NCBI GenBank assembly: GCA_003344405.1
Contig: NOWV01000083.1
Span: 134,250 to 170,118, forward strand
DNA length: 35,869 bases
Direction of reading: 5' to 3'
Source: Trichoplax sp. H2
Taxonomy: Eukaryota
Position 1 is the stretch's first letter. Each line of letters begins with the position of its first letter. Shown piece by piece: positions 553 to 31,900 of this stretch. The translations under genes and the position numbers were made by a program. The notes under the pieces were generated by a model that was not told the origin of the DNA, did no database searches, and saw only the letters and a list, made by a program, of their open reading frames with translations.

Positions 553-1010
553 ATGTACAGTACACTGTACAGTACAGTACTGTACGTGTATACTTATGGA
601 TTTCTAGAAATATCCTGGAAGTCCAAGCTGCTGTACTGTACAGTGGATTAGACTGCGCTGTCTACACTACAGCATACAGTACAGTACTACTGTATACTGT
701 ACACTGTACAGTACACCAGTAAGAGTGCATTCTTAATGTTGTACTGTACACTGTACAGTACAGTAGCAACGATTTGTCTACCCTCTATGAGAAAATGGCT
801 ATGCTGCCATTGCTGCGTCATATGTGCGCATCCTCCGAATTTTATACGAATTCACAAATAAAAATAAAACATTACATAATCTAGTCCTACTGTACATGCG
901 CGTAGGTAGGATGCAGTAATGGGCGTGTCTGTTGTGTAGCAAGAGGAGCTGCCTTATAGCAGACATTGCTACTGTACTGTACTGTACACTGTACAGTACT
1001 ATACGGTATA
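553..1010. repeat. Strand-switching pentanucleotide microsatellite (GTACA)n/(TGTAC)n forming GTAC-centred palindromes, cluster 1
   Basis: Runs such as gtacagtacactgtacagtacagtactgtac at 553-775 and 970-1010. The unit GTACA and its reverse complement TGTAC alternate. Confidence 0.9.
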
Positions 1011-1685
1011 TCAATCAGTAAAAGCCCTCAAATATTTCTTTCTTTGCTCTATACATTTTGCGAGAACACTTTACAAGTTGGTGACTGCAGGAAAAATCTT
1101 TAATTTAGGTAATAAATCAACCCTGTGAGTAGCTTGTAATACCATAAGTAAGATAAGCCTAATCTCATCGTTTCCGTTTTTTAAATAATAGTATAATACT
1201 TCACCTAAATTACGATAAAAACCGTAGTATCGAATACGCATCCAGAATCTTTGATTGCGGAAGTGCAGCTTTCTTTCTTTCGATATCACTTTAATGTCAG
1301 GCCGTACGAAAGCTTATGAATTTGAAGTCGATCGATAGAAGTTTGACATCATCCGCCTAATTTTAATACTCTACAGTTCTTTACATTGCGTAGTCATTAT
1401 TACTATAACAGTCTAGTATCTGTTATGTATTATTCGTGTTATATTGCGACACTAGGTCAATCACGCTAGACAAGGTTAGACACGTCAAAGTGGCCTTAAT
1501 AAACGCAAAATCGTCTTTTTATTCTGGATTACATTGCCGTTCGTGATATAGATATACAGAATCATCCATGTAGCAAGTTGCATACATAATAGTAACTAGT
1601 TAGACTATTTCGCTATGGACTAGTTAGGCCCATCAGATCAAAATTAGCTAAAAAATGAGACGCCATGATCCGCGTCCGAAAAAGA

Positions 1686-1872
1686 TACAGTGTACAGAGT
1701 GTACACTCACTGTACAGTATACAGTAGTACAGAACAGAATACAGTATTACTGTTACTATAGAACAAAACCACCGTTGCTAAGTTATGAGATAGCAGTTAC
1801 TGTACTGTACAGTGTACAGTATATTCGATCATCCGAAAATATCCAAACTATGTACTGTACAGTACAGTACGC
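1686..1872. repeat. (GTACA)n/(TGTAC)n palindromic microsatellite, cluster 2, about 600 bp 5' of the MVP ATG
   Basis: tgtacagagtgtacactcactgtacagtatacagtagtacag ... tactgtactgtacagtgtacagta ... tgtactgtacagtacagtac. Confidence 0.9.
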
Positions 1873-2465
1873 TATTCATTCTTCGTTCCAGCTAGGACCG
1901 TTTCAACTGCAAACTAAATTAGCAAATAAAAACGATAAAATGCAATAACACAAGCAAAGTATTTCTAATTTACACAGTATTACCCATAGTCTCAGCGGCA
2001 GGGACATTGTAATGCATTGATACGACAGGAATCTGTTAATATACAGCGTAATGAAGTAGGTGATATACTGTACTAGTAGTCGGCGTTGTTTTAATTGCAT
2101 TATTTCAAGAAATGATTGATTTGTACGTATCTACAGGATATGACGTACTGTAGTTAGGCTGTTACACTACGTCTGAATTTAAGCAATTTGTTCTTTGTTG
2201 CCAGCTACGGTATAAGCTCCTATATACTGTATACGCACGCACCGTAAGTTGCATTGCAGCATTTAGGTACGGTAATTAATAGGTAATTGTGGACGACGTA
2301 GAACTCGCTTAAAAGTAAAATGAGTACTGATTAAGGAGTTATTTGTAAATCTTTTGCTAACAGCGGTGTATTTATGAGTATTCATGAGTAAATTGATTAT
2401 ATTTATCAGTAATAAATTGGCACTATAATTGAAGATGCATCTATATGATTCTGGGTTGTAGCAAA

Positions 2466-5400
2466 ATGAGTTCGAAAGGATCTTCACGCTCCTCTGAGGA
2501 AATGAACATCTTTCGTATTGCACCGTATTACTATATTCACGTCATGGATCTGAATACCAACGTGACGCGAGTAGTAAACGGACCAAAGACTTACATACGA
2601 CAGGATAATGAGAAAGTAATTTTTGGACCGGAAAAGATGGTCACAGTACCTCCACGTCATTACTGCATTGTCGAGAGCCCTGTCGTACGTAATAAAGATG
2701 GCAATGTGGTTTTTGATACCTACGGGCAAGCTAAGCTACGACACGCAGATCTTGAAATTCGCTTTTCTCAAGAACCATTTCCGCTTTACCCTGGAGAAGT
2801 TTATAAACAAGCTCCCAAACCGCTTATGGTTGTCGCTGCGAACTCTGCTATTAGACTTAAAGCTATTTTAGATTTTGAAGAAGAGGGAACAAAAGTGAAC
2901 CGTGTAGCAGGGGACGAATGGCTATTTGAAGGGCCAGGTATTTTTTTGGATGCATTGTCATGAAAATATTGATTTTTACATGACTGCACTGTTAATGAGA
3001 ATGGACTTCTATTGACACTCAGGGACTTATATGCCAAGAAAGGAAGTAGAAGTAATCGAACCCGTTCGTGCTACTATAATTCAGCCGAATCAGGCAATCA
3101 AGCTGAGAGCTCGTAAACAAACTACGGTAACGTGTTTATACTTGATAGAATATCTTACATTGTAAACAGGACTATATTTTAGCTAATTAATAAGATATAC
3201 GTAATTGATTAATCGTCAGGATCGAAACGGTGTCGAGCGCGTCACCGGTGAAGAATGGACGGTTAAAAAAGTGGGTGCTTACTTACCCGGTGCATATGAA
3301 GAAGTAATGGGAACATTAGATGCCTACGTCTTGACTGAAAAGGTGCTCGATACAGTTAAACTATGACGCTTTAAAAATGCAACATTCTGGCTACTCTACT
3401 GTATAATTATAATTGAGGCCTAGATCAAGCAAACTGTAGTGGATAGAGAACAAATCTTAAATTCGTTACCACTGTTCATGATTATTATTTATACATTACT
3501 AGAAAGCACTTCACCTGCGTGCTATGCGCACTTTCCGTGATTGCTTCGACATAGAAAGAAAAAATGGTGAGGAATGGCTTGTTACCATGGTTGAATCTGA
3601 AGCTTATATACCTGATGTTTACGAAGAGGTCATACTTACTTTGATTCATACGGAGTTGATATTTATTTTTTAAATTCTTCACCTCTATTGGCTATTTAAA
3701 TAACGGAAAATTTCTTATTCATTAGGTTGTAGGAGTGGTAGATATCACTACCTTAACCAATCGACAGTATGCAGTTATCCTAGATCCCGTCGGCGCCAAC
3801 GGGAAACCACAACTTGGTCAAAAAAAGCTAATCAAAGTTAGTAACTTAATTAATATTGCATGTAAGATCATAATGCAAAGCAAACGATCGGCATAGTTAT
3901 TTAACTTTATATTAATACGCGTATTTGCTTTTTAGGGTGAAAAGTCGTTTTTCTTACAACCAAATGAACGCCTTGAGAGTGGAATTCAAAATGTGTATGT
4001 TCTTGGTGAAGATGAAGGATTGATACTTAAGGCTAAAGAAGAATTTCTTGATACAGAAGATAACAAGACCCCTCGTAAGCCTGGTGATAGGTGGATGATC
4101 CGTGGTCCTATGGAATATGTACCACCAGTTGAGGTTGACGTTGTATCAAAAAGGAAAGCTATTCCTCTGGATGAAAATGAAGGTATTTATGTCCGCGACG
4201 TAAAATCAGGCAAGGTAATATTAGCATAGACTACATATTTTTATATCATTCTTGTATTCGTTATATAAATATCTTTGAACGTCGCTGCGATTTGGTAGCA
4301 AATTCTCGTATTACGCTTAGAGTAATTTAGTTTAAATATCCTACACTTATTTCGCTTGCTCGAAAAATGTTAGGTTAGGTCTATATGCGGCAAAACTTAT
4401 ATGCTTTCTCAAGATGAGGAATTATGGTCTAAAGAATTACCACCAACTGTCGAAGAGTTGTTAATTAGCAATAAAGACCCACTTGCCGACAGAGGAAACT
4501 ATGCAACCAAAACTTCTTCAGCTAAACGTGACAAAACTAAGGTTGTCACGTTCAGAGTGCCACATAATGCGGCGGTACAAATTTATGATTATAAGGAAAA
4601 AAAAGCGAGGTACCGTAATGCTTCGTATTTATATTGATATTAACTTCCGCCAATTAAAGCAATTGCATTCTTTATTACGTAATTTCTTGTTGTATATTTA
4701 GGGTAGTTCTTGGACCAGACTTGGTCATGCTCCGCCCCGACGAACAGTTTACGCAGATTAGCTTATCTGGTGGTAAACCGAAAAGACCTAACCAGATTAA
4801 ATCCTTATGTCTTTTACTGGGGCCGGATTTCTGTACTGATGTGCTTACTATTGAAACAGCAGATCACGCCAGGCTGCAATTACAGTTGGCTTATAATTGG
4901 TAAATCAGTTAAATTTTCTGATTCATTATGTTACACGTTTAGAGAACGCGTTACTAAAGATTTAACAACGATTGTAGGCATTTTGAAATATCTGATAAAA
5001 CTCAAACTAGTTTAGCAAAGCTTTTTGCAGTCCCGGACTTTATTGGAGATGCTTGTAAAGCGATTGCATCAAGAATTCGAGGGGCAGTTGCCAGTGTACA
5101 ATTTGATGATTTCCATAAGGTAATTTTTTTGCATGGGTGAACGTAAAACGTTATCAAAATTTTTAAGAAATTAAGATTTAATGACTCGTGATACGTGATA
5201 GTAATTGTAAGCAATAACGAAATGTTATAGAATTCGGCAAAAATCATCTGTGCTGCAGTTTTTGGATACGATAGCGATCGGAAGCTTGGTAGTCGTTTTA
5301 TCTTTCCTGCTAATAACTTAGCAATTACAAGCATAGATATACAGTCTGCAGAACCAGTAGATCAAAGAACCAGAGATGCCCTTCAAAAATCTGTACAGTT

Positions 5401-6282: not shown

Positions 6283-7065
6283 CACTAAAAATTATTGGAA
6301 ATACAAAGTCAGTAATTTCGTTGGAAATAGTTCGATTCGCCATTGTGAATCTACTCTTCATCTTGACTACTCATTAAATTGGCCTTCGGCGTTTAGACCT
6401 TGACTGGTTAATCTAAATATTTTATTTGTATTATTATCAAACCTTAATGGAATTTATGTCACTGCTAGTACAGTACAGCATTAGAATGCTACTTTATTCC
6501 CTCAATTATTCTCTATACGTATATACATTTTAAAACGCCTTTTCGCCAATAGTCAGTATACTTTAAATGATGTAGCTAAATAAGATGATTTCTTTATTCT
6601 TCATTACATAGTAACGTAAGAAAAAGTGCGATCTCTATTAGAAGATAATGTGCTTTGCTTAATATATAATTAGCAGATACGAATCTATCATAATTATAAA
6701 AAGGACCTTTTGTAATAACCATGTAGAAGGTTTTATGATATATTTGATTTTAAAATATTTCTGATGTTAAAGCTTTCAATAGCAAATCTTATACCAATAA
6801 CCATCTGATTATGGTAATTGCATATCATTTACATTATGGCGTCAGTTAAAGCTAGTGATTGCACCCGGGGATACCTATCCGGGTTTTTTATCCGGCTAAA
6901 TGGAGCTAGTAGTATTTTTCACCTATCGCTGAGTATCAAAGATCAAATCTGCACGTACGAAGAAAATCTCTTACCATAAAAGTCTGTGTTTTACTATAAG
7001 AACAGTAGCCCTTAGTAACACAAACAAGTCTTAAAGTCTTATTTTATTGTTATCTTTACAACTAC

Positions 7066-7328
7066 GGTATACTGTACAGTACAGTACAGTATTCCGTTTC
7101 AAAGGCATACTGTACTGTACTGTGCAGTAAGTCGTTTTAATTTACAGTAGTTATAATCTTCCCGCAGCTATTATATATTCGTAATTATACTATGTTATGT
7201 TGATTAAAGTTCTTGTCTACTTAAAAATCTATAACCACTAATTTTAGTCGAATATTCAGTACAGTACAGTAGGCCAGGCCAACCCAGCTTGCAAAAACCT
7301 GGTACTACTGTACAGTACACTGTACAAT
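7066..7328. repeat. (GTACA)n/(TGTAC)n palindromic microsatellite, cluster 3 (two blocks, 7066-7130 and 7257-7328)
   Basis: ggtatactgtacagtacagtacagtattccgtttcaaaggcatactgtactgtactgtgcagta. The inverted halves flank a short spacer. Confidence 0.9.
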
Positions 7329-7398
7329 ATTCATCGCTGAAGCAGCTCTATCTATTCTCTTGCCTCTACTGAACCTAATACCAAGTTTCATAAAGTTT

Positions 7399-7445
7399 GA
7401 TTAAGATTTAAACTACTGTACTGTATAGTAGTTTAAATCTTAATC
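7399..7445. repeat. 47-nt near-perfect hairpin palindrome
   Basis: gattaagatttaaactactgtac|tgtatagtagtttaaatcttaatc. The arms are reverse complements over about 20 nt, around a ctgtactgta centre. Confidence 0.85.
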
Positions 7446-7630
7446 TGTACATATTGGGTGGAAAATCATTGTTTGGAGCTCTGCCCACTATGCCAAGGTG
7501 ATAATAAAAAGTATAGTACATAATAAGCGTATTTGCAGCTTGACAAGTTCTAGCCTGCTGCTGCCTCAATGTACAAACCTTCGACAGGTGTAACTAGCAC
7601 TAGCTTGGTTCGAGACGGAGGGACATTCGG

Positions 7631-7924
7631 CCGGCCTGCAGTACAGTACAAGAGACCAAAGACCGCGCCTGCATCTACGGTACAGTACTGTACTGTACAG
7701 TACAGTAGGTTTTATTGTGCTAGGCCGCCTAGGCGTACTGTACAGTACTGTACAACTGTAGACGTGACTCCCAGGCTAGTGAAATTTTTGTACTGTAGCC
7801 CGTGACTGTACTGTACCGCACAGTAAAAAAAGGTGTCCACTGTTGTACTGTACTGTACAGTAGAATACGATACTACTGAAGTAGTGTACACTGTAGTGAC
7901 TGTACCATGTACTGTACAGTACAT
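7631..7924. repeat. (GTACA)n/(TGTAC)n palindromic microsatellite, cluster 4, the largest 5' of the Mondo gene, interleaved with GC-rich spacers
   Basis: cagtacagtacaag...ggtacagtactgtactgtacagtacagtagg...gcgtactgtacagtactgtacaactgtag...ttgtactgtactgtacagtag...catgtactgtacagtacat. It also contains the palindrome taggccgcctaggcg. Confidence 0.9.
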
Positions 7925-8092
7925 ATCCGATTCAGTCATCAGTTTAGGTCTCAAGGTAAACGGCGAAATCTAATCTTTCACTATTTATTTATGTCGTTGT
8001 ACAGTATGTAGTTTATTCTTTCTGTTTTTATCGCGAAAACAGAAATAAATTTGATTAGCAAATCCGTTAGTAGGAATACGAAAATCTTACAG

Positions 8093-11000
8093 ATGGAACG
8101 AATGATTAATACAAATTTGCGACCAGTAAACTCTAATAATGGCAACTTATCTTCTGGCTACAATTTTGCACGTTTTGGACAAATGCCGAAGCAATACAAC
8201 TTTTTCAATCGCTATACTCTGTCCGATAAGGTTGCCGATGGTGATTCTTTAGCTCAATTACTCGACTGTTTGAGATTGGAATATAGGTATATTGTGATGT
8301 ATATATTCTAATCCAAATTATACCATTTCAAATACAGTATAAGGTATTAAAAAGATTTCAAGGACAACGCCTCAGTACATAATTTGCGGTACTGTACGTG
8401 TAGTAATAAGCAATTTTTGTATTTTAGACAGTACTGTATACTGTACGTATGTCCCGAAAACTTCAGCATGTTCAGTACTTACAAAGGGGCACAGTTTCAT
8501 AATTTACTGTACTGTATTCTATACCGTGGACCGACCGGTTAATTTATTCAGCTCGAAAAATTCATAGAAATATAACATCGACCAATTAATAATTTCCTAA
8601 TTTTTTAGTTAATTATTAAACCTACAACTCTTTTCATTTTAGTTATTATTTAGGCAAATTTGATGTCTGAACGCATTCACTAGAACTGTACAGTACAGTA
8701 CAGTGTACACTGCACAGTATAGCTGTATTTTAACCAGCACGCGAACTGTATCATACTGTGCTTCCTGCTGTACCGTATTGTACAGTACAGTGTTCACCTT
8801 ATGATCACGTATTCAATGCACTAGTTGGTTGCCATGTCATAAACTGCAAGTGTTTTCCTTATAGTTAAGTACAGTAATTGCCATACACTAAGTATTTCAA
8901 AATTATTAATACGCAATTTGCTGTCACAAAATGAATTACTAGCCTAAAATTGCAATGAATTATTATCATTAAAATATACGATGGCTTGTTTCTGACATTA
9001 GCCCCTTCTACAGTATATCGCAAATCCCCAGTTCTCCTATATTTAGTGATATTTAGACTAGTTAATGTAGACTGTACAATGTACAGTCTACATTCGTGGT
9101 ACATTAATTAAGTTAAGTTAACGTTGTCGTGTAGCACATTTATAAACACAAAATATTAACATATCATGAAATCTTTATTATGGACTATTATCGACTGGTT
9201 TGAAACCCCTTTTTTCTTATATTAGTGACACCTTGCTAACTCCGAGATGGAAGAACTTCAAAAGTCAAAATCTAAAATGGGAACAAAAACGGAGATTAAA
9301 CAACATCATTTGGAGAGCCTGGCACATGCAATGTAAGTTGTATTAAAGTTAACCCTCTGATGCTTACAACAGCGCAAAGTTCTTGCAATAATGCTCTTGT
9401 CTCATGCTATACAATTTTCAATAAATATTCAAAATTTTATGACTACATAATTACACTACGATTGTATCATAACCCGAGGTTATTTACTATTTATGCTGCA
9501 ATCGTTAGATAGATTTATTGCGCTATACTGCTTCATTTTCTACGCGTATTAGTCACTTTTGCCGTAACTTATCTTTATGTAAAATAATGTCGTTAGCAAT
9601 GTGTGAAATATCCAATGTACTATTAAGTTCCAAGTAGTATACGAAGTGGTAGATTCAAGACATGCCAACCGATAAAAGATAAAGAAGTACCTTATAGTAC
9701 TAAGCTGCCATATATGCTGCGCTTCGTGAATCGTATCCAACAGTTTATAAATATAATCAGAAGCTGCCAATGATCTTATTGATCTTTTGGATAATGTTCA
9801 TGAAGTTGTTGAACCTGTTTAATTGTAGAATCTTTAGTAAAATGCCACAATCTGTGCGGTATTACATAACCTTGATAACAGTTTTTATGTTGGGACGGAA
9901 GAGAAGAGCACAGTATACTATCAGAAACGTATCTATCGTTGCAGTTTTGATGTGCTACGTTCGACATTACGACTAACAAGGTCTTCCTATTTAACAGTTC
10001 AAAAGCATCGTAACTTGCCATTCTGTAAATTTGCCATCCCTTTCCTTGAAAATATGCATAATAAACCTCAGGTATTGACGTAATAAAAAGCTCTATATTT
10101 AAAGAATTAAAGTAAACCGTTGTACGGATAGCCATGACTACCAATCTATCCTAATTTTAATAATTGATCACTGTATTACATCAAGCAATGACAGGAGCGT
10201 ATCATAAATATTCTTAAATATTTTTCTACATGAAGGCAATCGTAGTAGAAGGTGAACATTGGCGTCGAAGGCTTGATGCCATTGCGTCAGAATATAAACG
10301 ATGGAGATGTTATTTTGGGCAGGTACTTGTATGATCTAGTCGCTAGATTACGAATCTTACCTCTAAAAATGAGATTTTTGTCTTTATTAGCTAATTGTAA
10401 TTTTTGATCTTTTCGAAATTTAGACTGTTACACCTCCTGAAACAGAGACACAAGTCATTCTGGGAAATGTCTGTTATATTTTGTCTACATCATCATATAA
10501 CGTTAAATCGATATCGTTTTATAGATTTTTACCTTATTGCTACGTTTTATGTGCTTATATAGGATGATGAATTATCGCAACAACTGAATGATGCATCCAA
10601 TAAATTGATCAAAGAGCAATTGATAGGGTTAGTCAACTAAGATATTATTTTGTAAGCAATAGGTCTTGAAGCTGCTTCATAATTTGAATACCCACGTTAT
10701 TGCTGAGAATAATCATTTCAGCATTTTCATTGATAATCTTAATTAGGCCAGGGAATGATAGCGAAATATTCCAAAATTCAGCAGATGGTAAGTGTCACAG
10801 TTGCAGATTAGAGGTAGTATAACAGCAGTAAGTTATCGTAACGGGTATTCACTGCTAGTTATTGTAATTTTTAGATTTTTTTTCGTATTGAGTTGTAAGT
10901 CGAGTACTGATTTCGAATCTTTCATTACAGTTTTCATGTTACCAGATACGCTCTTTTCCAGTCTAGCACCTGTAGACGACTTCAATTCTACCGACGAAAG

Positions 11001-13879
11001 ACTTATGGGTAAGAAAGTCTTCGGTAGTTATTATCATGAAGACGTAGCAAAAGAATAATAATAGATTACGTTGTTCTTTAATATAGATACAGCAGATTTA
11101 ATCCAACCAACCCTTGATCAATTGCAGCCGTCTGTTGCAGATTTATTGGCTACGATGGAAGATAACGGTGAGAGCATTATTTCGATATTAAAAAATGCAT
11201 GCTTTAACAATTGACTATTTAATGCGAATTGCAGTTAGCTAAATTTCTTTCCATGTAACCATGTCTTTACGACAAAAACAGATAACTACTTCTTAAAAAA
11301 ATTGGACGAAACTCCTCCGTTTTCCTTTACCGCTCAGCCTCAAGGTTTAGCAGCTACTCAAAATCTGACACAATCCCAAAAAAATAAAGCACCAATTTCA
11401 TATCATCCAATTGACGAGGAGCATTACAAGCATGTAGTGCCAGCAAATGTTGAAATTAATCAAAATGTTACAAACCATGGTCATCAAGAATTAGGGCTTA
11501 TGAATGTTAGTAACTATAACTGCTCTGCCATCGACGCTAATGCTACTGGATCATCCAACTCTATCCAGAATGTACCGCGTGCTGATAATGTTCATTTAGC
11601 TATGCATCAGAACCGCTTTAACCAGCAATCCTATCAATTACATAACATAAGTATGGAATCTACAACTACTTTTATTAAAACATCTAACAATCAGCTATCG
11701 GAATTAGAGAATCAGATACCCCAGGATTCCTTTCATGTATACCCAAACGTCGACAACAGGCAACGTCATCCAAACCTAGGAGCCGGAACTACCAATCATA
11801 ATAATCATCCACCTAAATTAAACAATATTTCAGAAATTCAAACGAGATTTAGACCTAGAGCTCCAGATCAATCTTCGAAATCTCCATCAACTCCTGCCCA
11901 TATTTTGTACAATCCTGTAAATAATCAGCAAGCAATGGTTTCTGAAGGCGCTGTTCCAGAATCTCCTGGCCGCGGATTTAGTAAAGAAAATCAGCCTATT
12001 CCCAGTCAATCAAGTTATACCTTTTGGAATGAACAAACTCAAGATTCTAGTGATAAATTTTTATCGCAACGGCCAGCCGCCGCCAGTCAGGAAAGAATTG
12101 CCGCCAACACCGCTACTGATAATTCTTTCCTAGCTCGATTGCTTACGAATTCAAATTTTACTCAAGAATCGAGACAATATCAACGTCATTCAATCGAGAG
12201 ACACTACGTAGCTAAGCCAGTACCAATTGCGCCTGCTCAAAATAAGGTACAGATGAACAATTCGCCTTCGTTGGGAAATTTACAGTATGACTGGAATCAG
12301 ACGCGAGAATCATCGAAAACCTTAGATAATGTAACTATATCTACTGAATGCTTTGCCATTTTTGGTTGTATTACACCCATAAGGCTTCATCACTTACTAA
12401 TTTACGATTTGCTCAATATTAAGAATGAATCTACGTCTTTGCCGGTTAGCCCTACTCATACTGGCTCCATAGCACACGGTAAGTAAGCAACGCTATAAAC
12501 TTAACTGTTCACCATCTTGCACCCATGTAATCTTTTATTATTGTCCCTTAGTTGTGGAGCCGACTGGATTCGCTAAGATTGAATCGCATAGTGGCTATAT
12601 GAATAGTATTCAGATGACCAGCAAAGCTAATATGAATACATCGTCGGAAAGCCAGACTAAGCCGTCAGTTACTAATGAGGTTGTTTAATTAAACCTTGAG
12701 TTTATAATAGCGAAAATGACAAGCTGCAGGATAAGAGTGTTGTTTTTAGACTATATGGGTAAAATCTTAGATAGTTATAAACATTTCTCATTTAGGAATA
12801 TCGAAGGAGATCGCATCAGTCTTCCGAGCAGAAACGCCGTGGCAATATTAAGGTTTTCGGCCTTTTTTATGATGAAATCACTAGCACAATATAAATCTCG
12901 ATGACGTAACTAATGATTACTATTAATTTATTAGCTAAGATTTGAGAAACTGCAGTCTCTAGTACCATCGTTAACTTCAGTGCACAATGCAAGAAACAGT
13001 AAAGCAACTATTCTTCAAAAATGTCAGTAAGATTAATTTATGAGTATTCTTAGATGAAATATGGCTAAGTAATGGTAACTCTAGTTTTTTTCTATTTTCT
13101 GTCACCTAAATTAGCAATTGATTATTGTAAAACCTTAACCCAAGAAAAACAAGCGATGCAAGCTGAAATTCAGAGACTTAAAAGTAGAATTTTAGAGTTA
13201 AATGAGGGTATTAAGTACGTAAAATTCTATGTTGTGATAACGTAATGTTTTAACGGAGATACTATTACTCATACCAATTTATATACGTTGCATGTATAGT
13301 AAATGTCATCAACAATTACCTGTGACTGGTGCTACTGTTACCCAGCAGCGAGCTGATCAATTACGGCAAAAATTTGACGAATACGTTAAAAAGAGGACTT
13401 TAAGCAATTATAAATTCTGGATTGTATCCTTTTCGCTTAGGATTATACATCTTTCGAGTGGCAATCCCTCAGAATTTACTTTCTTCTGTTTGTTTATATA
13501 TTTTATGTTTACTCTCAAATGTAATCTGTGATTCTTTAACGATATAAAACTGCTACAGTTTAGCATCATTATTAGGCCGTTGTTCGAGTCATATAGCAAC
13601 ACTGCTGTAACATCAAGCTATGATGAATTCTACCGAACAATGCAAGCATGGATGGATCAGCACTGCACTCTTGTTCAATTGAGACCAGGTATGATTGCAT
13701 GACCAGGTAATTGCTATCTGTTTAACATAAAGATTAATGCAAGAACTAATCTGTTTCCTTTCATTTCAGTTGTCATGGCCGCGCTTTGTCAGCTAAGTAC
13801 CGATACGGATATACTATCGAATCCATCATTAGTTCCTGTTCAGGCTGTAGAAGCTGCAAAAAAATTATTAGTTGAAAAT
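8093..13879 (+). CDS. Mondo-family bHLH-leucine-zipper transcription factor (MondoA/ChREBP/MLXIP homolog), complete gene, 16 coding exons
   Basis: Exons, GT-AG and phase-consistent: 8093-8287 (alternative in-frame ATG at 8051), 9226-9340, 9884-9929 (least certain), 10227-10320, 10563-10627, 10747-10787, 10931-11007, 11088-11167, 11345 or 11351-12478, 12552-12678, 12796-12851, 12935-13022, 13115-13214, 13290-13423, 13569-13688, 13770-13879 (TAA). The conserved blocks match the Mondo conserved regions. MCR I-like: SLAQLLDCLRLEY. MCR II: RWKNFKSQNLKWEQKRRLNNIIWRAWHMQ (cf. KWKNFKG...RLNNAIWRAWYIQ). MCR III: AIVVEGEHWRRRLDAIASEYKRWRCYF. MCR IV: FMLPDTLFSSL. MCR V: ADLIQPTLDQLQPSVADLL. Exon 9 is a long Q/N/S/P-rich central exon, the 394-aa ORF in the track. 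The basic region is SHQSSEQKRRGNIK, followed by the HLH (LRFEKLQSLVPSL...ATILQK), the zipper (IDYCKTLTQEKQAMQAEIQRLKSRILELNEGI) and a DCD/WMC-like C-terminus (KCHQQLPVTGATVTQQRADQLRQKFDEYVKKRTLSNYKFWIFSIIIRPLFESY...MQAWMDQHCTLVQLRP...ILSNPSLVPVQAVEAAKKLL). Confidence 0.9.
8390..8800. repeat. (GTACA)n/(TGTAC)n-related repeats scattered in Mondo intron 1
   Basis: Short copies at 8390-8446 and 8505-8520. A long block at 8685-8800: aactgtacagtacagtacagtgtacactgcacagtatagctg...gctgtaccgtattgtacagtacagtg. Confidence 0.8.
9064..9094. repeat. Perfect 14+14 hairpin palindrome in Mondo intron 1
   Basis: aatgtagactgtaca atg tacagtctacatt. Confidence 0.85.
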
Positions 13880-18546: not shown

Positions 18547-18965
18547 GTTCGTCCATTGATAGGCGTAAAACTTTGAAAAATTTTGGCTAATAAAATTTGA
18601 AAGGTACAGCAGCAGATAAAAAGAAGCTCGGTTTAGTAGCAGCAATATCTGTAAAGTGAGTTAAATCAAATCTTTATAGTAGGGTCTCTACTGTACAGTA
18701 CAGTACACCGTACAATACAGTACAGGACTTTAATATAGTAAATGGTGACACTGTACAGTACTGTACTGTACAGTACTGTATACGGGTACAGTACGTACCG
18801 TACAGTACAGTACGGGTACTGTACTGTATGTCCAGTACAGTACTATACACTGTACACGGTATGCTCAGTACTGTAGGACACTGAAGACAGTAGCACAGCG
18901 GCAGCAGTGCTACTGCCATCACAACTTGCAAGCACAAAAGGAGATTAGAAGACGAAATTACAAAA
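18547..18965. promoter_or_regulatory. Putative bidirectional promoter shared by SPT4 (minus) and the L10K-like gene (plus); almost wholly occupied by a GTACA/TGTAC palindromic microsatellite
   Basis: The two start codons, 18546 on the minus strand and 18966 on the plus strand, lie about 420 bp apart and point away from each other. The 18690-18890 interval between them is almost pure (GTACA)n/(TGTAC)n. Confidence 0.5.
18690..18890. repeat. (GTACA)n/(TGTAC)n palindromic microsatellite, cluster 5, filling the SPT4/L10K divergent promoter
   Basis: ctactgtacagtacagtacaccgtacaatacagtacagg...cactgtacagtactgtactgtacagtactgtatacgggtacagtacgtaccgtacagtacagtacgggtactgtactgtatgtccagtacagtactatacactgtacacgg. 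Confidence 0.9.
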
Positions 18966-20729: not shown

Positions 20730-20945
20730 GTTTAACAGTTTCAGTTCTTAATCAGAACAGTACAAGCTTATTGCTTATAGTGCTTATGAGCTAACAGTTA
20801 GTTTCACTAGTTAATTGAAACTGCACAAGCTTTATTGCTCACAGTATTTGTGAGTAATACGCATGAGTTTAGCCATCCAGTTAGTTTCAGTTATTAATCT
20901 GAATAGTACAAGTTATTGCTTACATTATTTGTGAGCTATACACTT
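20730..20945. repeat. Minisatellite: three diverged tandem copies of a ~60-80 bp unit
   Basis: Units begin agtttcagttcttaatcagaacagtacaagcttattgcttatagtgcttatgagcta / agtttcactagttaattgaaactgcacaagctttattgctcacagtatttgtgagta / agtttcagttattaatctgaatagtacaagttattgcttacattatttgtgagcta. Identity between copies is about 75-80%. Confidence 0.8.
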
Positions 20946-21234
20946 GTTTTACAGAATAAAAAAACTTTTACGTTAATTCAAATAGTTGAACTACCAAACT
21001 AATTATTCCTCCATTACTCAGTAAGGAAAATCAGGACACAGTCAAGAATATAGTAACGGCTACTAGGGCCAAGATTAAATTTGTAACCAGTATAAACTTA
21101 GCTATCGAATGTTATGTGGTTTGTGTTGTATTTACTGCTACTAGTCAACTTTAGTAAATTGCTAGTGAACGAGTCAATATGTACTGTAATTACGGTATTA
21201 AGTTAATATCATTGTTTTGAGCCCTGCAGCTACT

Positions 21235-21335
21235 GTACTGTATGCAGTTTATCTGCACTAATTCCTAGACGTTACAGGTCTGTCATACATACAGCTGTAG
21301 CAATGATGACTATACTGTACAGTACAGTACCGCTC
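21235..21335. repeat. (GTACA)n/(TGTAC)n palindromic microsatellite, small cluster
   Basis: ctactgtactgtatgcag ... ctatactgtacagtacagtaccgc. Confidence 0.75.
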
Positions 21336-22806
21336 TGGCAGTCTCCAAAGTCCAAATACCATACCGACAATATATTTTTAAAAGTAGTGAAAAATAAGTT
21401 ATTGATAAATATTAAACGAAACTTCCGTCGCTGATTATATTCAGACCAGATATGTAACCTAAGATTAATAATTTATTGCATAACCACAAAATTAATATCA
21501 TCACTGGTAGATAATCTGGTATGTTAATTTTGTTAATAATATTAATTTGATTGAAATTGACAATGGTTAAATAACAACCAGCCTAACTAGGAACTTAGTT
21601 TAAAATAGAGACCTTGGATTAGTTTTTATTTTAACTAATCATCACTTCAACAGCTACAATATGTAAAAATAGATTTTTGAGAGAGATTCAATTTTACTTT
21701 AAAACGTGTAGGATCGCAAATTGCCAACACTCGTCGATGCTGCATTGATGCATTAAAAAATATGTCCATAGAACAATGGATTTTCATTGTTTATCTTTAA
21801 GACCGGAAATTAACACGACAGAAAGTAAAATTACAAAGATAATTGAGATATATCACAAAATTTTACAATCAAACCTCTTACAAAAACCTTTAAAAAATAA
21901 GAAAATGTTTAAAGTTCTCGAATCTTTGAACATGTGCAAACTTATACTTCTTATAGCTGATAATCTTTGCTCTTGAGATAGTTGATAAATTAATTGGTAA
22001 CCTATAAAATATTATATTAACTTCGAAATCATCAATAGAGTCAAATACGCAGGTACTGTCAACTTAATCTAAAATCTCAGTCATTATTTAATTATATACT
22101 AACACTGAATATACTCTATTTCTGTTGTGCTACGAATTCTGACTTCTTTATGGTATCGCGATTGGCATATCATAATATGCCCTAGCCATAGCTCACTAAA
22201 ACTTTATACTCCAATATTATTAAACTGGTAAGCGAAGAGATACAACTGCTTTAGAGCCAGAAATTTAATCAATCTCCTAGATTCTGCACTGTATGTGATT
22301 AATCTTCAACAGTCAGTTAAAATATGGGTTGTTATAATTATTATTCCTAAAATATTTTCATTCTTTATTAACAAAACTGATTACAGCTTGGCTGTAAATC
22401 ATCAGTTATTATAATTATAATCATAGGCCTGTTGCGATATCTGATCAGTACAGTACTCTAGACAGACATTTTAATAATATTGTGCTGTTGGTGTTGGTAC
22501 TGTACTTGTTTAGGCGGGGTAACAACAATTCCGACACATTGAAATGTTGCAGTGAGCTCAGACAGACAATGAGCAAATGTAAATAAATATAATAAGCGAC
22601 AGTCAAATAATGTAAAGCAAAAGGTACAGTATAAATAAACAGCAGTACGCGAAGTATACAAAATACTTGCTTTTTGAAACATACTAGCTAAACATCCTGT
22701 CGCTTCGCCGACAGAGATATAGGCAGCTAAATGATTATAATGCAAAATTGCAGTACCACGCAAAGTTCAAAGAAACATTTTATTACTGCTGAAATACAAA
22801 TGCGAG

Positions 22807-22848
22807 ACTGTACTATACAGTATACAGTACTCACAGTATATATTCTAA
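22807..22848. repeat. (GTACA)n/(TGTAC)n palindromic microsatellite, small cluster
   Basis: actgtactatacagtatacagtactcacagtatat. Confidence 0.7.
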
Positions 22849-23009
22849 ATGCAGCACAGTTACTAACTATAATTAATATAATCCATCTAGTACTATATTA
22901 AACCGTGAACAGGAGTAACTGTGACACTAACAAGAAATGAGAGACCATATCAGATCTAAAGAGACGGATAGCGCAAACTTTAAATTCCGATTCATTTTCT
23001 GTCACTGAC

Positions 23010-23440
23010 CGTACATACTGTACAGTACAGTATGTACTAGCATACTGTACTGTACTGTACAGTACATTACAGCGTAAACATGGCTGAAACAACACCTTAT
23101 TTTCTGTTTACGGTACTGAATAAGGTGGTGATCCTTACTACTGTACTGTACTGTACACTGTACACTGTACAGTACAGTACTGTAAAAGAAAATTACTGCC
23201 TGTACTGTACTGTACAGTACTGTAGTCTACAATACTGTACAGTACAGTACTACATGGTTACAGTACTGTATACTGTAGAGGTTTTTTTCTTACCTCTAGG
23301 CTAGCCCATAATGCAGTACAGTACTGTACACACTACACTGTGTACAGTACTGTACTGTACAGTAGAGTACAGTACTGTACACTAATTTTGAATACTGTAC
23401 AGTACATTACACTGAGTTTAGTACTGTAGAGCGAATGCGC
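23010..23440. repeat. (GTACA)n/(TGTAC)n palindromic microsatellite, cluster 6, ending about 240 bp 5' of the Tudor-PHD gene ATG
   Basis: Three dense blocks at 23010-23070, 23140-23280 and 23312-23440, e.g. ctgtactgtactgtacactgtacactgtacagtacagtactgtaaaag...tgtactgtactgtacagtactgtag...atactgtacagtacagtactacatgg. Confidence 0.9.
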
Positions 23441-23678
23441 ATCGCATTTTATTCCTTATTTAACTCGACACTATCACTATTATCAGTGGTCCTGTCCATC
23501 AAGAACATTAAATATCAGTAAAACAGTCATCAGACTCAGCATCAGCTATCAACTAATCGCTAATATCTATATTTTATCTAATTGTGAACATTATATCTCA
23601 AGAGCTTTACTAAAACAGGACGAAGACCTTTTAGCATCGCGCCATATTTCAGGTTTTGTTAACACCGTAGTAAGATGA

Positions 23679-26600
23679 TATGAACCTCAACAAGAAATTT
23701 CCACATGCTATCAATGATGTTATTATCGTCAAATGCCAGAACAATTACTATTATGCGAAAATAAAAAGCATCGACAAACGACGTCGCAAGTGTAAGGTCT
23801 TATTTGATGACAAGTCTACAGATGATCTACCCTTTAGTGATATCTACAGCGGTAAGTTCTTCATTTAACTGCAATATTGCCTCATATTATATGTGCTCAC
23901 TCACTTCATCGCCGACTCCAAATAATTTGTTATAAAAGTTACCACTAAATCCAATGTTCTCAGAAATTGTGTCTCTTTTTACTCGAGAATATTTTGCAGC
24001 GTCGCATGTAGAAAGTACCTTAGCACTGTATTACATTTCAAATTGAGATTATTTTCTATTAATGGTGGATCATTATAAAGCATCTCTTGAATGGTGTGAT
24101 ATTGCTCTACTGTACTATTATGTGCAATATTTTCAATGTAATTCCATCGATTGGTGACATACAGTATTACTTTACGTTAGCAGTGAGTGGATACCAATAA
24201 TTACAGTACTGTACAGCTGCAAGTCTAGTCTTTACTCTCTATTGTCTTTGTCATTTCTATCAGTATCTTTCGAGTTTACAATATATAATTAGACATACGC
24301 ATTCTGTAATACCGTTAGTATCTCATTTTCCTTTTCTACTGTATGCTTTTCAACATGTAATGAATACCGAATAAGTGTGTATAATACTGGTAGAGTAACA
24401 GTAAATATAGGATATGTCGTTTTTACCAATGTTCATGAAACTACTTCGAATCAGACAATTAGACATTTATTTTATTTAATTTTACTATACAGATTGTGAG
24501 TACATAAAACCACCTTTGTAAAAAAGAGTGTCGTACGGTACTGCACGGCTCCATACTGATACTGTACAATCTTTTACAGTACTTCAGTGGGCATGCTGCA
24601 CAGTGCACAGGTATACTGTATACTGTACTGTACGTTCAGTACAGTACAGGTCATCGATAGCCTTTGTGCTCGCATTGATTCAAAGAGAAAGAGTTGTTCA
24701 GTACTGTACACACCGTACGTACTGTACACACCGTACGTACTGTACGGTACTATACGGTTTTGTTCCGTAGATGTGTGGCTGTATTATAAGAGTAGATGCG
24801 TTATATGCATTACCTAGTATAACTACAGCCTTTAGCCTTGAGTGCAGCACATCTTTTTTGTCTTTGCACTATTGCTTGCTAAACAATAGACGTAAAATGC
24901 AGCGTGCTTGTAGACTTGGCTAATTTTATTTCTTTATTTATTAAAAAGTAAAAAAAGTATATACCATATATAATATATACCTGAAATTATTCTATGAAGT
25001 TGAAGATCTTAAAAGCGCTTGTTTGCTATCACATTACTCAGCTTGGAAGAACTGCCAAGTTGATAACTTACAGTAGTGTAGAAAATACAGTACAGTACTG
25101 TACTGTATATTAATTGTGCAAAGTGTACAGTACAGTACACCATACAGTACAGTACTGTGCACTGTACAGTACAGTATTCCTTCTCGGTTACTTCTGGACG
25201 ACCGTCTACAGTACATTTTATTGATATACTGTATTTTGGATTTTACTGTAACGTAAAGCTAGCTCATAGTGATAGTGTGAATTGTATCTGTTCCAGTATC
25301 AATCAGCACCGCTTAATAACAAACTAACGTTAGTATCAGTAATAAAATAACGCATCACACACATCAACTTCTTTATCCTTGACTGCCGGAGTTGTGAGCT
25401 TGCGAGTGACTGATTCCATCATCCATTGTACTATTAGGAATAAATATTACTATTAACTGAATGCGATGTACAGTATTACAATGAATCCACTTAGCATCGG
25501 TGTTCATTCATTAAAGCTAGAATTTTTAGAAGGGCAATTAACTCCAATTTTTGCCGTTACTTCTATAAATTTTTAATGTTGGGGCTGTTGTTGTTCGGAT
25601 TTTCTATTTACTCAAGTTGGCGATACCACTACGGAAATCGTCTGCATCGTTTGTAAGAGTGGCTCTTCTGAATCACCTAACGAGATTGTCTTATGTGATC
25701 GATGCAGTATTGGTAAGTAATAATGATTAATTAAAATTTTAGTGCTATATTCTATTGAAGTCTTCATGCATGCAGCGTAAAAGAGTTTGAAATCATTACA
25801 TGTTTAAACGTTTAATAAACAAGAAAGTATCAATTAATCCTATGGCAATCAATTTTAGCCTATTACAACGTCAATGTAAAAGTATTTACTGTTAGTGTAG
25901 TCAAAAATTTCATTAATCTTAATTAATTAAGTAACAGTACTGGTGCTGATGGGAATACGTACATGCGCGTATATTATGGTATCGCATTATAAAATTATAC
26001 TGCATGATATCTTTTATAAGTTCTAGCGTAAGGTGGTATCAGAATTAGTACAGTACATTAGTTAGTTACCTGTTGCATACAGGTAATAATTTTTTTATTT
26101 ACCATCAATACGTAAAGTCGTAGACTTTGTTCTAATAAATAAAATCTAATAGATAAAAACATTAATTTAAATTTTTAAATACAGTATAGCTGAGTGATTG
26201 AGTTGTAGTGGATGATATGTCACAGATGACATTACGACAATTTGGTCATTTTTTCTATTTAGGATATCATCAACAGTGCCATTCACCACAGATACCAGAA
26301 TCGGTTTTGAAGCCGGACGTTCCGTGGTTATGCCATTATTGTCAGTCGAGTGAAATTTGCCCATATTTTGTAAAAAATCCTTTTACTGACGATAAAGGAG
26401 GAAATTTTAATAATAAGGTAACGTACCATATATGCATCGATATTATATTCAATAATTAACCTCAAGATAACGCACATTACTGTAGGTAAATTAAAATTAC
26501 AGTATAAGTACAAAATTATCCTATATTTCACTTATAATTAGCGAGCGACGGGATTTATATGATATTTTTGTAACAATCAGAAAAAGCCAATAGATAAAAA

Positions 26601-28450: not shown

Positions 28451-28573
28451 ATGGGAGTATTTTTATTGTATTTCTGATGTAGTTTTCACTGGATAATTTA
28501 CACTTATATGGTTTTGGTGTTTAGCAAAATCCATTAAGAATTTCTTTTTCTAAATTGGATTATAATCTTAAAG

Positions 28574-30183
28574 GTAATAGAAACTCTGTCATTAAGGAAT
28601 CATCGGACAACCCTATTAGCAATCCGAATCAGACTGACAAAACGTCGGTAAGAAATCTTGCGTTGATAAATTATTCGGCTTCGAACATTAGAACACAACC
28701 TGGCCTTCCGATATGGCATTGATATCTTAGCTTATTAAAACTACCTATAATTTATTCATCTGTGTTTGTGAATAAACTTACTAGCTTCGTTAATTAAGAT
28801 GCATTTAAGACTCGTAAACATAAATAAATTTTTGCAGTTCTATTGCTGTAATATGATTTCTTAGTTCATAGAAAATAGAAGGATTCTTCATCTACATAAA
28901 GACCTTTCATCATAAAATCTAAACTAGACTGATCAAAGCTGATAAAGTATCCTTTTTACATCTCATGTAATTGCAGATTAATCTGGAAGAAAATCAAATA
29001 TGTCCGAAAACCAAAGTGAAGAAAGATGGGAAAGACGATTCATTTAAGTCCGATGATGGCATTAGTAAGAACGAAAAATCTAAAAACGAAAGCAATGCCG
29101 ATGAAATTAAATCTAAAATAGAAGCGGACGCTTCCTCTAAAAGAAATAAAATGAACGACACAGCAAATTCTAGTGATAAGTCAGCAACAAATGAACCTAA
29201 TCAACAAATTTGTGATTCCACGAAAGATTCTAAAGATGGCTTAAAGCATGCCAAAGAACAGCGAAACCTGGAAGAAGTAGATAATAAGTCAAACAATTAC
29301 GATAAGGATATTCATAGAGGTAATAGCAGAAAATTTTTATAAAGCTTATAAGATGTATGGTATAATACTTGTAAAAGGTGTAGATATACACGTAGATGTT
29401 ATACGTTGGTAGATACGAAATAATAACCTATTATACTAGTACTATCAATACTTAATTTAAAAATCTGGCAAAGTGAAATTCAGAAGGAGTAGGTAGTGCG
29501 GCCTTAATATATGAAAATACGGATAGTACGTATTATTTTTTGAAATATCTGATAGGTGTAAGACATACTGTAAATATGGTTAGTGTGGTACATTAATAAC
29601 AGGTCGTATATTGACAGATCCTGAAACTAATGCTCGTGGTGCATTGGATAACATAAAGTCTACTCCTTGTAGTGGTGACACTGTACGACCCCTTAATGTA
29701 GATGTAGAGCCCCATCGTATGTGTGATAATTGTAATCAACCCGCCTTCTTTCTCTGTTCCGGCTGTAAAACCACATGGTATTGCAGTCAACGGTGCCAGG
29801 CGAGTAAATTCAATAATTCTTTCGCAAATCATCTAGCCTAAGCGCAAGTTAAATTCTTGAATCTATTGTATGTTAGCGCACATGTGTAATTAACTTTACG
29901 TACGCATCAGCATTTCTCTACTACCTGGTAATGCTTTATAGTAGCTATAATAATGCTTATGAGGTAATATTATGCCTTCTTTTAGCATAAAATACATGAA
30001 GTAAAAATATCTTATTTTTCCGATCATATTTCTACGTTTTTCGTAATTACTAAGATTCAGTCTATAAATATCTATTACAATAGTCTTACAGTCGATTTCC
30101 TGATAGATTCTTTTTATATTATTTTAGGAGAAAGCATGGAATGACCATCACTTAAAATGTAAGAGAATACCGTGGCATTTGAC
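28574..30183 (+). CDS. Probable C-terminal exons of the same gene: S/N-rich exon, K/D/S-rich exon and a MYND-type zinc finger split over two exons
   Basis: Exons: 28574-28637 (GNRNSVIKESSDNPISNPNQTDKTS), 28977-29330 (the K/D/S/N-rich 123-aa ORF), 29603-29803 (...HRMCDNCNQPAFFLCSGCKTTWYCSQRCQA), 30131-30183 (KAWNDHHLKCKRIPWHLT*). The last two together read C-x2-C-x7-C-x2-C-x3-WYCS-x2-CQ-x3-W-x2-H-x3-C, a canonical zf-MYND. If the large exon uses donor gaa g|GTATTT at 28443 instead of its TAA, all four downstream junction phases are consistent. Chance agreement of four phases is about 1%. Linkage to the Tudor-PHD gene is inferred, not proven; it could be a separate downstream gene. Confidence 0.55.
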
Positions 30184-31809
30184 ATAGTTCATATGTTCTC
30201 CATATCGACATGGTTAAACAATAATTGCGAACCTCTGAAATATATTCGTTGGCTTCGATAGAAATAATGTATTTCCTTATTATACTGTATTTATTTTAAG
30301 TGTTAAGCTGTATTATTATTATTTATATTACAGTACGGCTAAAACGTCGGTGCTTCACCTTGTAATAAATAAATTGTGGCACTCGTAGAAGTAATGTAAT
30401 ACCACAAATGAATGTAAGAATTTTTTATTACAGTCAGCTACTTCTAGTTATGACTAAGACAACTGTATCGTAACTTGATTAACTACGGCTATAATCTCAT
30501 TTATATTCTGTTACCAGTCCTCTAGAACGGTTTAAAGATAATGATTCTTGAATCGATCTATTGACAGCAATTTCTTATATATTGGCGATTGTTATTGTTA
30601 GTTGCGATTACAATCTGCACCAATGCGTATATAATGTAAATGTATTGTAATCCCTTGGTATACGTCATTGTTTTATGGGACGGGACTCTCTTAGATATAT
30701 TCTTCGCAGTTAATAATATAAGTGGAATATCCACTTACACGTATGATGTTGGGGTTAACATTTTAAAAGTATACTGTTAACAGGACTTGAGAATTAGAAT
30801 ATGATCATTTGGACACGAGTAATATCCAAACTATTCAGTACTAACATGGTCGTTATTTATTCTTGATCAAATCAAATGGCCGCTCTTTGACAAATGATTA
30901 CATCACTGATTTTTTACATTTTATGCATTTTCACTGGTAACTATGAATATAGGGTCTATAAATTTCTTCCGTATCTCATATAAAATTTCGTACATTTTTT
31001 CTTTTAATTTGCACAGAACTACGGAAGTACTCTGCAACGAATAGCTGTTGATTTATACTGTACTGTACGTATTATCATTTAGTATATTCGCTTAATTAAT
31101 AACAGTTAAAAGTTATTATAGTTAATGATATTATTAGCTTGTAAATGTATATGATGCCAGATAGCTCAGTTACTGACAATCATTAATTTTAATTATTGAC
31201 CCGTACCTAGAATTACTTTTGAAATCGTATAATTCCTTTAAATCTGTTCAGTTTATTATACTGTAACTGATGTGATTACTTCGAATATTAACACTAAGTT
31301 GTGTTTGGTCTAAGATAATGCCGATGTCTTATTACTATCCAGACCAATTATGTTCATAAATAAATGAATAATTTATAAGTATGGCTTACAGACAGTAGTT
31401 ATTTTATATTATATACGAGAAAATAACGATTACAATTGAATGTATCATTGACATTAATACAAACATTCGTCTAATAAATAATACGGTAACTACATGTTAA
31501 ATGATATGTAATCGTTCACGTTGGCTGTGATATTGAAAACCTAGGTTCGATTTTGTAGTAATTAAAAACTTAAAAACATTTTCTAACAAGACGATCCACT
31601 CTATAGTAATACTAGTATACAGTATAGAGTAGGTCATGTGTAAAATTTATCAATCGGTGCACTGCTAGTAGAAATGTAGTACCGTTGATAATGCCATCCT
31701 ATCCTCGTCGCCTTATTAACTACTAGTTACTGTAGATCCCTCACTCGTGTACTCCTGAGCTTGAGCACGAAACTACGAGTACCGTTATATTCGTTGTTAC
31801 CAGGTATCT

Positions 31810-31900
31810 TGTACAGTACGTTCTGTACAGTATACTGTACTGTACTGTAACTGTAAGAACTAAAAAGGACTGTACCGTACAGTACAGTCCTGTACGTACT
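31810..31900. repeat. (GTACA)n/(TGTAC)n palindromic microsatellite, cluster 7, about 100 bp 5' of a candidate ATG-containing first exon at 32008-32040
   Basis: cttgtacagtacgttctgtacagtatactgtactgtactgtaactgtaag...ggactgtaccgtacagtacagtcctgtacgtactac. Confidence 0.85.

Follow-up and report, generated by a model that had tools for sequence, protein, structure and literature searches.

Clustered TACWGTA repeats at gene 5' ends in Trichoplax sp. H2 resemble stacked excision footprints of a Tc1/Sleeping Beauty-type transposon

MITEs (miniature transposable elements with inverted repeats) derived from Tc1/mariner transposons, such as Stowaway and mimp, target TA dinucleotides and accumulate in the 5' flanks of genes. 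Excision and remobilisation of the transposon Sleeping Beauty leave a TA duplication and a 3-nt remnant, with a gain of 5 bp in each cycle, and the two canonical footprints, TACAGTA and TACTGTA, differ at their ambiguously repaired fourth base (bioRxiv 10.1101/659086; PMC4378557). Eight footprints have been reported, the non-canonical ones including TATA, TACTA/TAGTA, TACGTA and TACATA/TATGTA (bioRxiv 10.1101/659086). The same sequence, TACWGTA with W for A or T, is more frequent than any other 7-mer in a stretch of 35,869 nt from Trichoplax sp. H2 (contig NOWV01000083.1, positions 134,250 to 170,118; hereafter the window), where it forms clusters in front of genes, and we consider these clusters to be probably stacked excision footprints of a cut-and-paste transposon of the Tc1/Sleeping Beauty type, targeting TA and terminating in CAG. 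This identity is absent from the readings offered in a preliminary description of the window, which was made from the sequence. Unit and footprint agree in all 7 bp, in the TA on both sides, in the ambiguous centre and in the gain of 5 bp, and several of the published non-canonical forms occur within the clusters as well. Unlike the known footprints of Sleeping Beauty and other Tc1 elements, which are single scars at experimental donor sites, the units of the window are chained through their TAs and concentrated at promoters, with up to 16 units in 190 bp and 211 in 36 kb. Single excision footprints are well known; promoter-associated, microsatellite-like arrays of them were not found in the open-access text searched.

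Several other systems resemble the arrays in part. TACWGTA has been described as a promoter-associated palindromic motif of germline and ribosomal-protein promoters in C. elegans (PMC3575287) and of proteasome promoters in Zygnema (bioRxiv 10.64898/2026.09.09.750301); in both cases the same 7-mer is enriched near gene 5' ends, but the sites were single, were read as transcription-factor sites and were not linked to footprints. Ordinary (GTACA)n or (TACAG)n microsatellites have the nominal unit, the period of 5 and the detection by Tandem Repeats Finder (TRF) in common with the window; unlike its arrays, they are strand-pure and reach 19 units, whereas the window shows random orientation, chains of at most 5 units and many mini-arrays per locus. 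No description of (TACAG)n-type repeats was found in the literature searched. Stowaway and mimp MITEs differ in being the elements themselves, as the window holds only putative scars and no common element body. Cruciform-forming repeats, e.g. palindromic AT-rich repeats, share the strong predicted hairpins; the palindromy of the window is, in contrast, a by-product of a self-complementary 4-bp core and hardly depends on how A and T are ordered.

A transposon of the proposed type would duplicate its target TA upon insertion, and its excision would leave both TAs together with the 3-nt CAG overhangs of the two inverted ends. These overhangs would anneal with a central A:A or T:T mismatch, which would be resolved to A or T, turning an empty TA into TA-C(A/T)G-TA with a gain of exactly 5 bp. 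As this scar holds two TAs, a second visit would extend the chain by a further CWGTA, with an independent A or T. If many such cycles took place in the germline at TAs of open chromatin near promoters, in the 5' flank as well as the first intron, a randomly oriented (GTACW)n lattice would result in which palindromes arise automatically. The arrays may later have been remodelled, by slippage and by duplications that were either tandem and small or, occasionally, of the fold-back (inverted) type. The mechanism predicts a 7-mer as the unit, with a period of 5 bp and GTAC as its palindromic core. It further predicts that the central base is W and not S (C or G), that orientation is random, that chains are edged by TA rather than by complete GTAC cores, that many short chains lie at separate TAs and, because each event would pick a regional TA at random, that chain lengths are geometrically distributed. 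From the agreement with the observations below we infer both that such a transposon made the arrays of the present species and that open chromatin caused their 5' bias.

TACWGTA (TACAGTA or TACTGTA) occurs 211 times in the window, about 8 copies being expected, and GTAC is represented by 341 copies (about 114-135 expected). GTACWGTAC was counted 94 times, compared to 0.4-6.3 in Markov simulations of order 1 to order 3. When at least 3 units were required for a cluster, 19 clusters were obtained (1676 bp in total, 140 of the 211 units), which were also recovered by TRF as period-5 arrays. The preliminary description was thus right about the places of the repeat clusters and about their being far beyond chance. 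It had taken them for runs of GTACA that then switch to TGTAC. As GTAC is its own reverse complement, this "switching" comes down to A or T at one base, and the repeat is in fact a GTAC core with a 1-nt spacer. Between neighbouring GTAC cores the spacer is A in 55 cases and T in 39, with C and G found twice each; over all units the central base is A in 105 and T in 106. Among the 71 pairs of adjacent units that share a TA (5-bp spacing), 41 have the same letter and 30 a different one (p = 0.24), so that the order of A and T along the chains is statistically random and 42% of adjacent units differ in orientation. Since C or G at the central base (~4%) is as rare as mismatches at most other unit positions, the 1:1 split between A and T is not explained by point-mutational decay. 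The CAG/CTG remnant therefore has the ambiguous A/T centre of a footprint, independent between neighbours; TA flanks it on both sides in 211/211 units, by definition of the search pattern.

The perfect chains were also short. Lengths of 1, 2, 3, 4 and 5 or more units were found 97, 24, 12, 5 and 2 times, respectively, with a maximum of 5, which fits a geometric distribution (p = 0.44). TA is the invariant edge of the chains, a G or C completing the GTAC core being present at only 45% of chain ends; the outcome for the phase of chain ends (TA versus GTAC) was intermediate, because neighbouring units have decayed. Within clusters, CWG accounts for 140/262 of the spacers between TAs, and all published trimmed footprint forms occur beside it, in small numbers: 14 TATA, 9 TACTA/TAGTA (C/G), 3 TACGTA (CG) and 2 TACATA/TATGTA (CA/TG). 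The second commonest unit in clusters is TA-CACTG-TA (n = 8). The clusters have no non-motif flanks in common, matches in a self-BLAST being confined to motif-rich sequence, and consist of many short chains at separate TAs with unrelated sequence islands between them. A transposable element carrying the clusters was ruled out by this lack of common flanks.

As a control, public metagenome contigs were scanned for four GTACW units with a closing GTAC, which led to 120 loci. From their contig names we take most of these to be termite-gut metagenomes, the arrays lying probably in host DNA. Adjacent units were the same in 1655 cases and different in 81 (4.7%), runs reached 19 units, and about 90% of the public arrays with a GTACW unit stay pure. 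The mixing of orientations in the window is therefore unusual, as the preliminary description had held, and not intrinsic to the sequence.

Mixed arrays are present on a 23-kb contig (L127/L128/L132; ENA ERZ10646505 contig_23290) of an unrelated eukaryote, found by a protein-database search with the peptide of a spurious open reading frame (ORF) of an array. Arrays are turned into spurious proteins by gene callers (Y-S-T-V-Q / Y-C-T-V-L), and such proteins have been deposited in public protein collections; ORFs of this kind lie at 18674-19021, 23080-23304 and elsewhere in the window, and at 3-563 on the minus strand of L126, a contig from a relative. The attribution of these ORFs to the repeat in the preliminary description was thus correct. 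The unrelated genome has 54% GC and is intron-poor. In 14 kb, where 1.3 TACWGTA units are expected, 89 were counted, of which 40 are centred on A and 49 on T; 22 adjacent pairs are alike and 26 different. All units are intergenic beside gene 5' ends, one array beginning 25 bp from an ATG, and a second unit type, TA-G(A/T)C-TA, is also present. At L127 9528-10740 (= L132 about 3250-4470) arrays lie on either side of a GC-rich island of 430 bp, which separates a BART-domain gene from a TPR/Sel1 gene; the density of TA in L127 is 20.8 per 100 bp within arrays and 3.1 outside.

The same locus is represented by contigs from further samples (96-99.9% identity to L127/L132), and these differ by whole 5-bp units. 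One of them, L137, reads GACTGCGAC-TA-CAGTAAATATCGATAG… at the first TA of the array, where the others have TA-CTG-TA-CTG-TA…. Its 231 haplotype-specific bp (1466-1696) follow the TA with CAGTAAATATCG… and contain three direct repeats AGGGTCTGAnnGATGCTTAG; this tail resembles the inverted-repeat/direct-repeat (IR/DR) end of a Tc1-family element and, by its sequence, is probably a transposon end. Similarly, in L129 (1-113) foreign sequence lies to the left of a TA, ends in …CACAGAC (GGCGGCTACACAGAC before the TA) with GGAGTCAGC repeats, and directly adjoins TA-GTC-TA-GAC-TA-GTC-TA. This terminus, probably again a transposon end, would leave exactly G(A/T)C scars. As the repeat in common at the L137 and L129 junctions is at most 7 bp, assembly chimeras are unlikely. 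BLAST against the loci collected in the analysis gave no further copies of either tail. L137 and L129 derive from the metagenomes JGI 3300045300 and 3300060432. In a ~96% identical strain, synteny breaks directly after the array (L133 1637-2564 versus L132 from 3444 onwards), with an ankyrin-repeat gene in place of the TPR gene, so that a breakpoint of structural rearrangement falls together with the arrays.

With ATGs as proxy for transcription start sites, 5' enrichment in the window was judged from densities and distance bins. Upstream of seven ATG anchors, the first 500 bp contain 80 units and the bin from 501 to 1000 bp a further 48 (divergent pairs counted twice). Four 5' regions reach 13-39 units per kb compared to 3-4 in distal DNA and 0.7 in the MVP gene body, so the 5' bias claimed in the preliminary description is confirmed. 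Unit density in exons is near chance and, as had also been claimed, no cluster overlaps any exon identified on the exon map, which is approximate. Inside genes, units occur only in 5'-proximal introns, namely intron 1 of Mondo and the one between the Tudor and PHD exons. The placing of all remaining clusters in first introns holds for some of them; small clusters are also found elsewhere, and 37 isolated single units are spread throughout the non-coding DNA, where 7-22 are expected and composition-matched control palindromes occur 5-15 times. The repeat is therefore biased to 5' flanks and first introns, yet not limited to promoters.

Two relatives' promoters could be compared. On the Tudor-exon contig L126, whose exons share 89% of their nucleotides with the window, 15 units lie between 260 and 710 bp upstream of the ATG and mirror those at -256 to -670 in the window, with no alignment outside the exons. 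Upstream of the gene on the MVP contig L001, 1.4 kb of sequence contain no more than 2-3 isolated units. Comparison of orthologous promoters thus gave presence without conserved sequence at Tudor-PHD and no array at MVP, i.e. array presence is conserved at one of two promoters compared. Conserved presence is predicted by a persistent insertion hot spot and by a functional element alike. The MVP introns of window and L001 are too diverged for a base-level comparison of TA with TACWGTA.

Predicted hairpin energies of the clusters lie at z -3 to -10 relative to dinucleotide shuffles. Cruciform-forming palindromes, as considered in the preliminary description, were not supported as the primary explanation: when the A/T spacers were randomised and the lattice was kept, the total folding energy barely changed (observed -387.7 kcal/mol, simulated -373.6 ± 8.1, z = -1.75). 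The long near-palindromes are therefore mostly a by-product of a lattice with a self-complementary core, and selection for palindromes as the main factor was ruled out by this randomisation. Real inverted duplications that include non-motif bases are found in a few clusters only (687-766, 7070-7129 and 23314-23357), in addition to an odd palindrome at 7399-7445 with the appearance of a TA-centred perfect palindrome expanded by four footprint-type units. The near-palindrome at 7070-7129 (60 bp) has three A-centred and then two T-centred units around a 16-nt island. The inverted repeat at 23314-23357, perfect over 19 nt and closed by a 6-nt loop, includes the non-canonical ACACA and is therefore a genuine fold-back duplication, not a by-product of the lattice. 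The 18-bp tandem repeat at 24701-24745 is a recent higher-order duplication, which implies that the arrays are also subject to slippage or unequal exchange.

A strand-switching microsatellite was the class named in the preliminary description. An origin by slippage would, in its fullest form, start from a (GTACA)n microsatellite whose spacers are then randomised by repair of A:A or T:T mismatches in hairpins or cruciforms, by template switching or by inversion. The period-5 arrays found by TRF, the strong hairpin potential, the real inverted and perfect tandem duplications, which show that slippage and fold-back occur, and the pure (GTACA)n arrays of many genomes all speak for such a palindrome-prone pentanucleotide repeat, and A:A mismatch chemistry would also yield W rather than S at the spacer. 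We nevertheless regard it as unlikely, as the spacer is random, there is no run structure in orientation, and among about 140 chains no long pure array, the presumed start state, was found, the lengths being geometric up to 5 units. Slippage is also unable to create a single unit, and single units are 2-5 times enriched in non-coding DNA; the many separate TA-anchored mini-arrays with unrelated islands, the purity of most public arrays, from which flipping is not intrinsic, and the transposon-like ends at the array boundaries of L137 and L129 are left unexplained as well.

A selected promoter element appears improbable to us. TACWGTA or GTAC would here be homotypic palindromic sites for a dimeric factor, or a nucleosome-excluding lattice, with rapid turnover of sites, or footprints exapted for such a role. 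The strong accumulation of units in first introns and in the 1 kb before six ATGs would agree with this, as would the 190 of 442 bp that arrays occupy in the bidirectional SPT4/L10K promoter, the clusters at the same upstream distance without alignable sequence in the relative's Tudor-PHD gene, and the motif reports from C. elegans and Zygnema. No factor is known, however, the literature giving reports of motif enrichment only; the relative's MVP upstream region has no more than its few isolated units, and the enrichment of units exceeds 10-fold in introns and in distal intergenic DNA too. The same architecture in an unrelated GC-rich eukaryote would not be predicted from a lineage-specific factor, unit number varies freely between haplotypes of that organism (L127/L132), and the 5-bp TA-sharing lattice, the 1:1 ratio of A and T, the geometric lengths and the 5-bp presence/absence polymorphisms are given no reason. 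A regulatory role could hold as a secondary exaptation; none of the observations calls for one. We give hardly any credence to two further explanations, namely that a dispersed mobile element carries the clusters as internal repeats (microsatellites associated with a MITE or Helitron) or that they are artefacts of assembly or polymerase at palindromes. Microsatellite-bearing MITEs are reported from other genomes (PMC8449440), a 214-bp segment at 756-979 has 13-nt inverted ends beside units, and short-read contigs of other organisms break within such arrays. The self-BLAST similarity without common flanks contradicts the mobile repeat; as for artefacts, each array is short and imperfect and has a sequence of its own, hence is easily assembled, and the same array type is present in independent assemblies of relatives and, from several samples, of the unrelated organism.

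Several observations weigh against excision footprints. No Tc1-like element, transposase remnant or convincing element with TA/CAGT…ACTG/TA terminal inverted repeats (TIRs) was detected in the window (35.9 kb): an approximate SB10 transposase sequence used as tblastn query gave a best E of 2.5, and neither scans for TA/CAG…CTG/TA terminal inverted repeats nor an inverted-repeat search led to anything convincing. The small contigs of the relatives contain no source element either, and the putative transposon ends, 231 bp and 105 bp of contig ends, come from another organism. The counts of the minor spacers are too small to beat the AT-rich background or to separate trimming from random deletion; TA-CACTG-TA is outside the eight reported Sleeping Beauty footprints and could also result from 2-bp slippage. 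The enrichment of G at chain flanks (45%) requires either decayed neighbouring units or a target preference, and the perfect tandem (24701-24745) and perfect inverted (23314-23357) repeats indicate that other processes are active too. The conserved cluster at the relative's Tudor-PHD promoter is predicted equally by a functional element, and the open-access text searched contained no published case of footprint arrays.

The ~214-bp segment at 756-979, bounded by TA/CAGTAGCAAYG … CRTTGCTACTG/TA with its 13-nt inverted ends adjoining units, is a doubtful candidate for an element and could be a small MITE remnant or due to chance. The minus strand has a third end-like match, TAC[AT]GTAGCAATG, at 31962-31974; when up to 2 mismatches were allowed, 8 end-like matches were found compared to 2.6 expected.

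The window is a compact, animal-type locus, AT-rich with 34% GC, and its exon map is approximate. Vault-domain homologues bear out the identity of MVP, whose closest match is a Logan contig with 88% amino-acid identity. SPT4 (ATG 18523, minus strand) was identified via its match to solved SPT4 chains and the Tudor/PHD/MYND protein (ATG 23680) by Pfam; L10K (ATG 18966, plus strand) has a weak match to PF09495 only. A further gene we take to be Mondo, solely from its conserved MCR motifs. A candidate first exon at 32008 consists of ATGGCTACAATAATGGAGTCTGGCAGTGAAAATG followed by the splice donor GTACGT, and a minus-strand exon with an ATG at 35471 encodes an acidic N-terminus. Long AT-rich stretches (13900-17700, 20000-22500 and 30000-34700) hold no convincing coding ORF. 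Two repeats lie apart from the GTAC family: an AT-rich 46-nt near-palindrome just 3' of the Mondo gene (13875-13920; 91% self-complementary, without GTAC motif) and a 21-bp tandem repeat at 33654-33716 (3 copies, 65% matches). Clusters, regional unit densities and further gene positions are compiled in Table 1.

Table 1. Clusters of TACWGTA units, unit densities by region and gene positions in the window.
Positions	Content	Location or remark
534..584	5 units	divergent intergenic region, minus-strand gene (ATG 151) / MVP (ATG 2466)
634..765	9 units	holds 82-bp imperfect palindrome 687-766 including non-motif bases
970..998	4 units	
1713..1746	3 units	about 720-750 bp upstream of MVP ATG
1798..1869	6 units	about 600 bp upstream of MVP ATG
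7070..7149	7 units	between MVP 3' end and Mondo 5' end
7260..7317	4 units	
7399..7445	perfect palindrome, arms 15+15 nt, GATTAAGATTTAAAC / GTTTAAATCTTAATC	centre chain TA-CTG-TA-CTG-TA-TA-G-TA
7642..7862	14 units	230-450 bp upstream of putative Mondo ATG
7886..7922	GTAC-dense, 5 cores	about 170 bp upstream of putative Mondo ATG
8390..8445	3 units	first Mondo intron, between MCR2 and MCR3 exons
8688..8708	small array, 4 GTAC cores	first Mondo intron
18689..18875	16 units	about 190 of 442 bp between SPT4 ATG and L10K ATG
21313..21329	3 units	small, distal
23016..23064	7 units	upstream of Tudor-PHD-MYND gene
23139..23277	16 units	variant 7-bp unit TA-CACTG present three times
23317..23428	11 units	holds perfect 19-nt inverted repeat 23314-23357
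24160..24213	3 units	intron between Tudor and PHD exons
24560..24646	6 units	intronic
24702..24744	intronic cluster	perfect 18-bp tandem repeat, 2.5 copies, GTACTGTACACACCGTAC (24701-24745)
25069..25250	14 units	intronic
31812 to about 31884-31899	6 units	near candidate first exon at 32008
152-2465	13.4 units per kb	divergent left-end gene / MVP
6700-8092	21.5 units per kb	5' of Mondo
18559-18965	39.3 units per kb	SPT4 / L10K
19950-23679	13.1 units per kb	L10K 3' end to Tudor-PHD ATG
35472-35869	2.5 units per kb	upstream of right-end gene; one unit in about 400 bp
	2.9-4.0 units per kb	distal or 3' intergenic DNA
	0.7 units per kb	MVP gene body
	about 0.22 units per kb	chance expectation
about 8093	putative ATG	Mondo
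8051-8287; from 9170	MCR2 exon; MCR3 exon	Mondo exons flanking the first intron
151	ATG, minus strand	gene at left end, divergent from MVP (ATG 2466)

Therefore, from the form of the unit, its ambiguous centre, the lengths and edges of the chains and the probable transposon ends at arrays of the unrelated eukaryote, stacked excision footprints remain our preferred explanation. More tentatively, TACWGTA lattices at promoters could quite possibly record how Tc1-like elements with CAG termini were inserted at TAs of open chromatin and excised again in the germline, in dozens to hundreds of cycles that became fixed and in which each scar provided a new TA target. This would have recurred in distant eukaryotes (the present animal, its relatives and the GC-rich, protist-like organism), with promoter "motifs", palindromes and length variation as by-products, and possibly with the TACWGTA promoter motifs elsewhere among them. 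Searching with peptides of array ORFs is a useful route to other genomes with such arrays. Should the explanation be wrong, a repeat with unit-by-unit randomised orientation that tracks promoters in unrelated eukaryotes still needs to be accounted for. Should it be right, the arrays would represent a microsatellite-like, palindrome-rich class of repeats made by repeated transposon excision and not by slippage, and their scars would record where (promoters and first introns) and how often germline insertions took place that otherwise leave no trace. A promoter-enriched 7-mer may then be a mutational scar instead of a binding site, which bears on the published TACWGTA "cis-elements", and the arrays would supply core promoters with fast length variation in steps of 5 bp and with hairpin-prone DNA, which may affect promoter spacing and stability.

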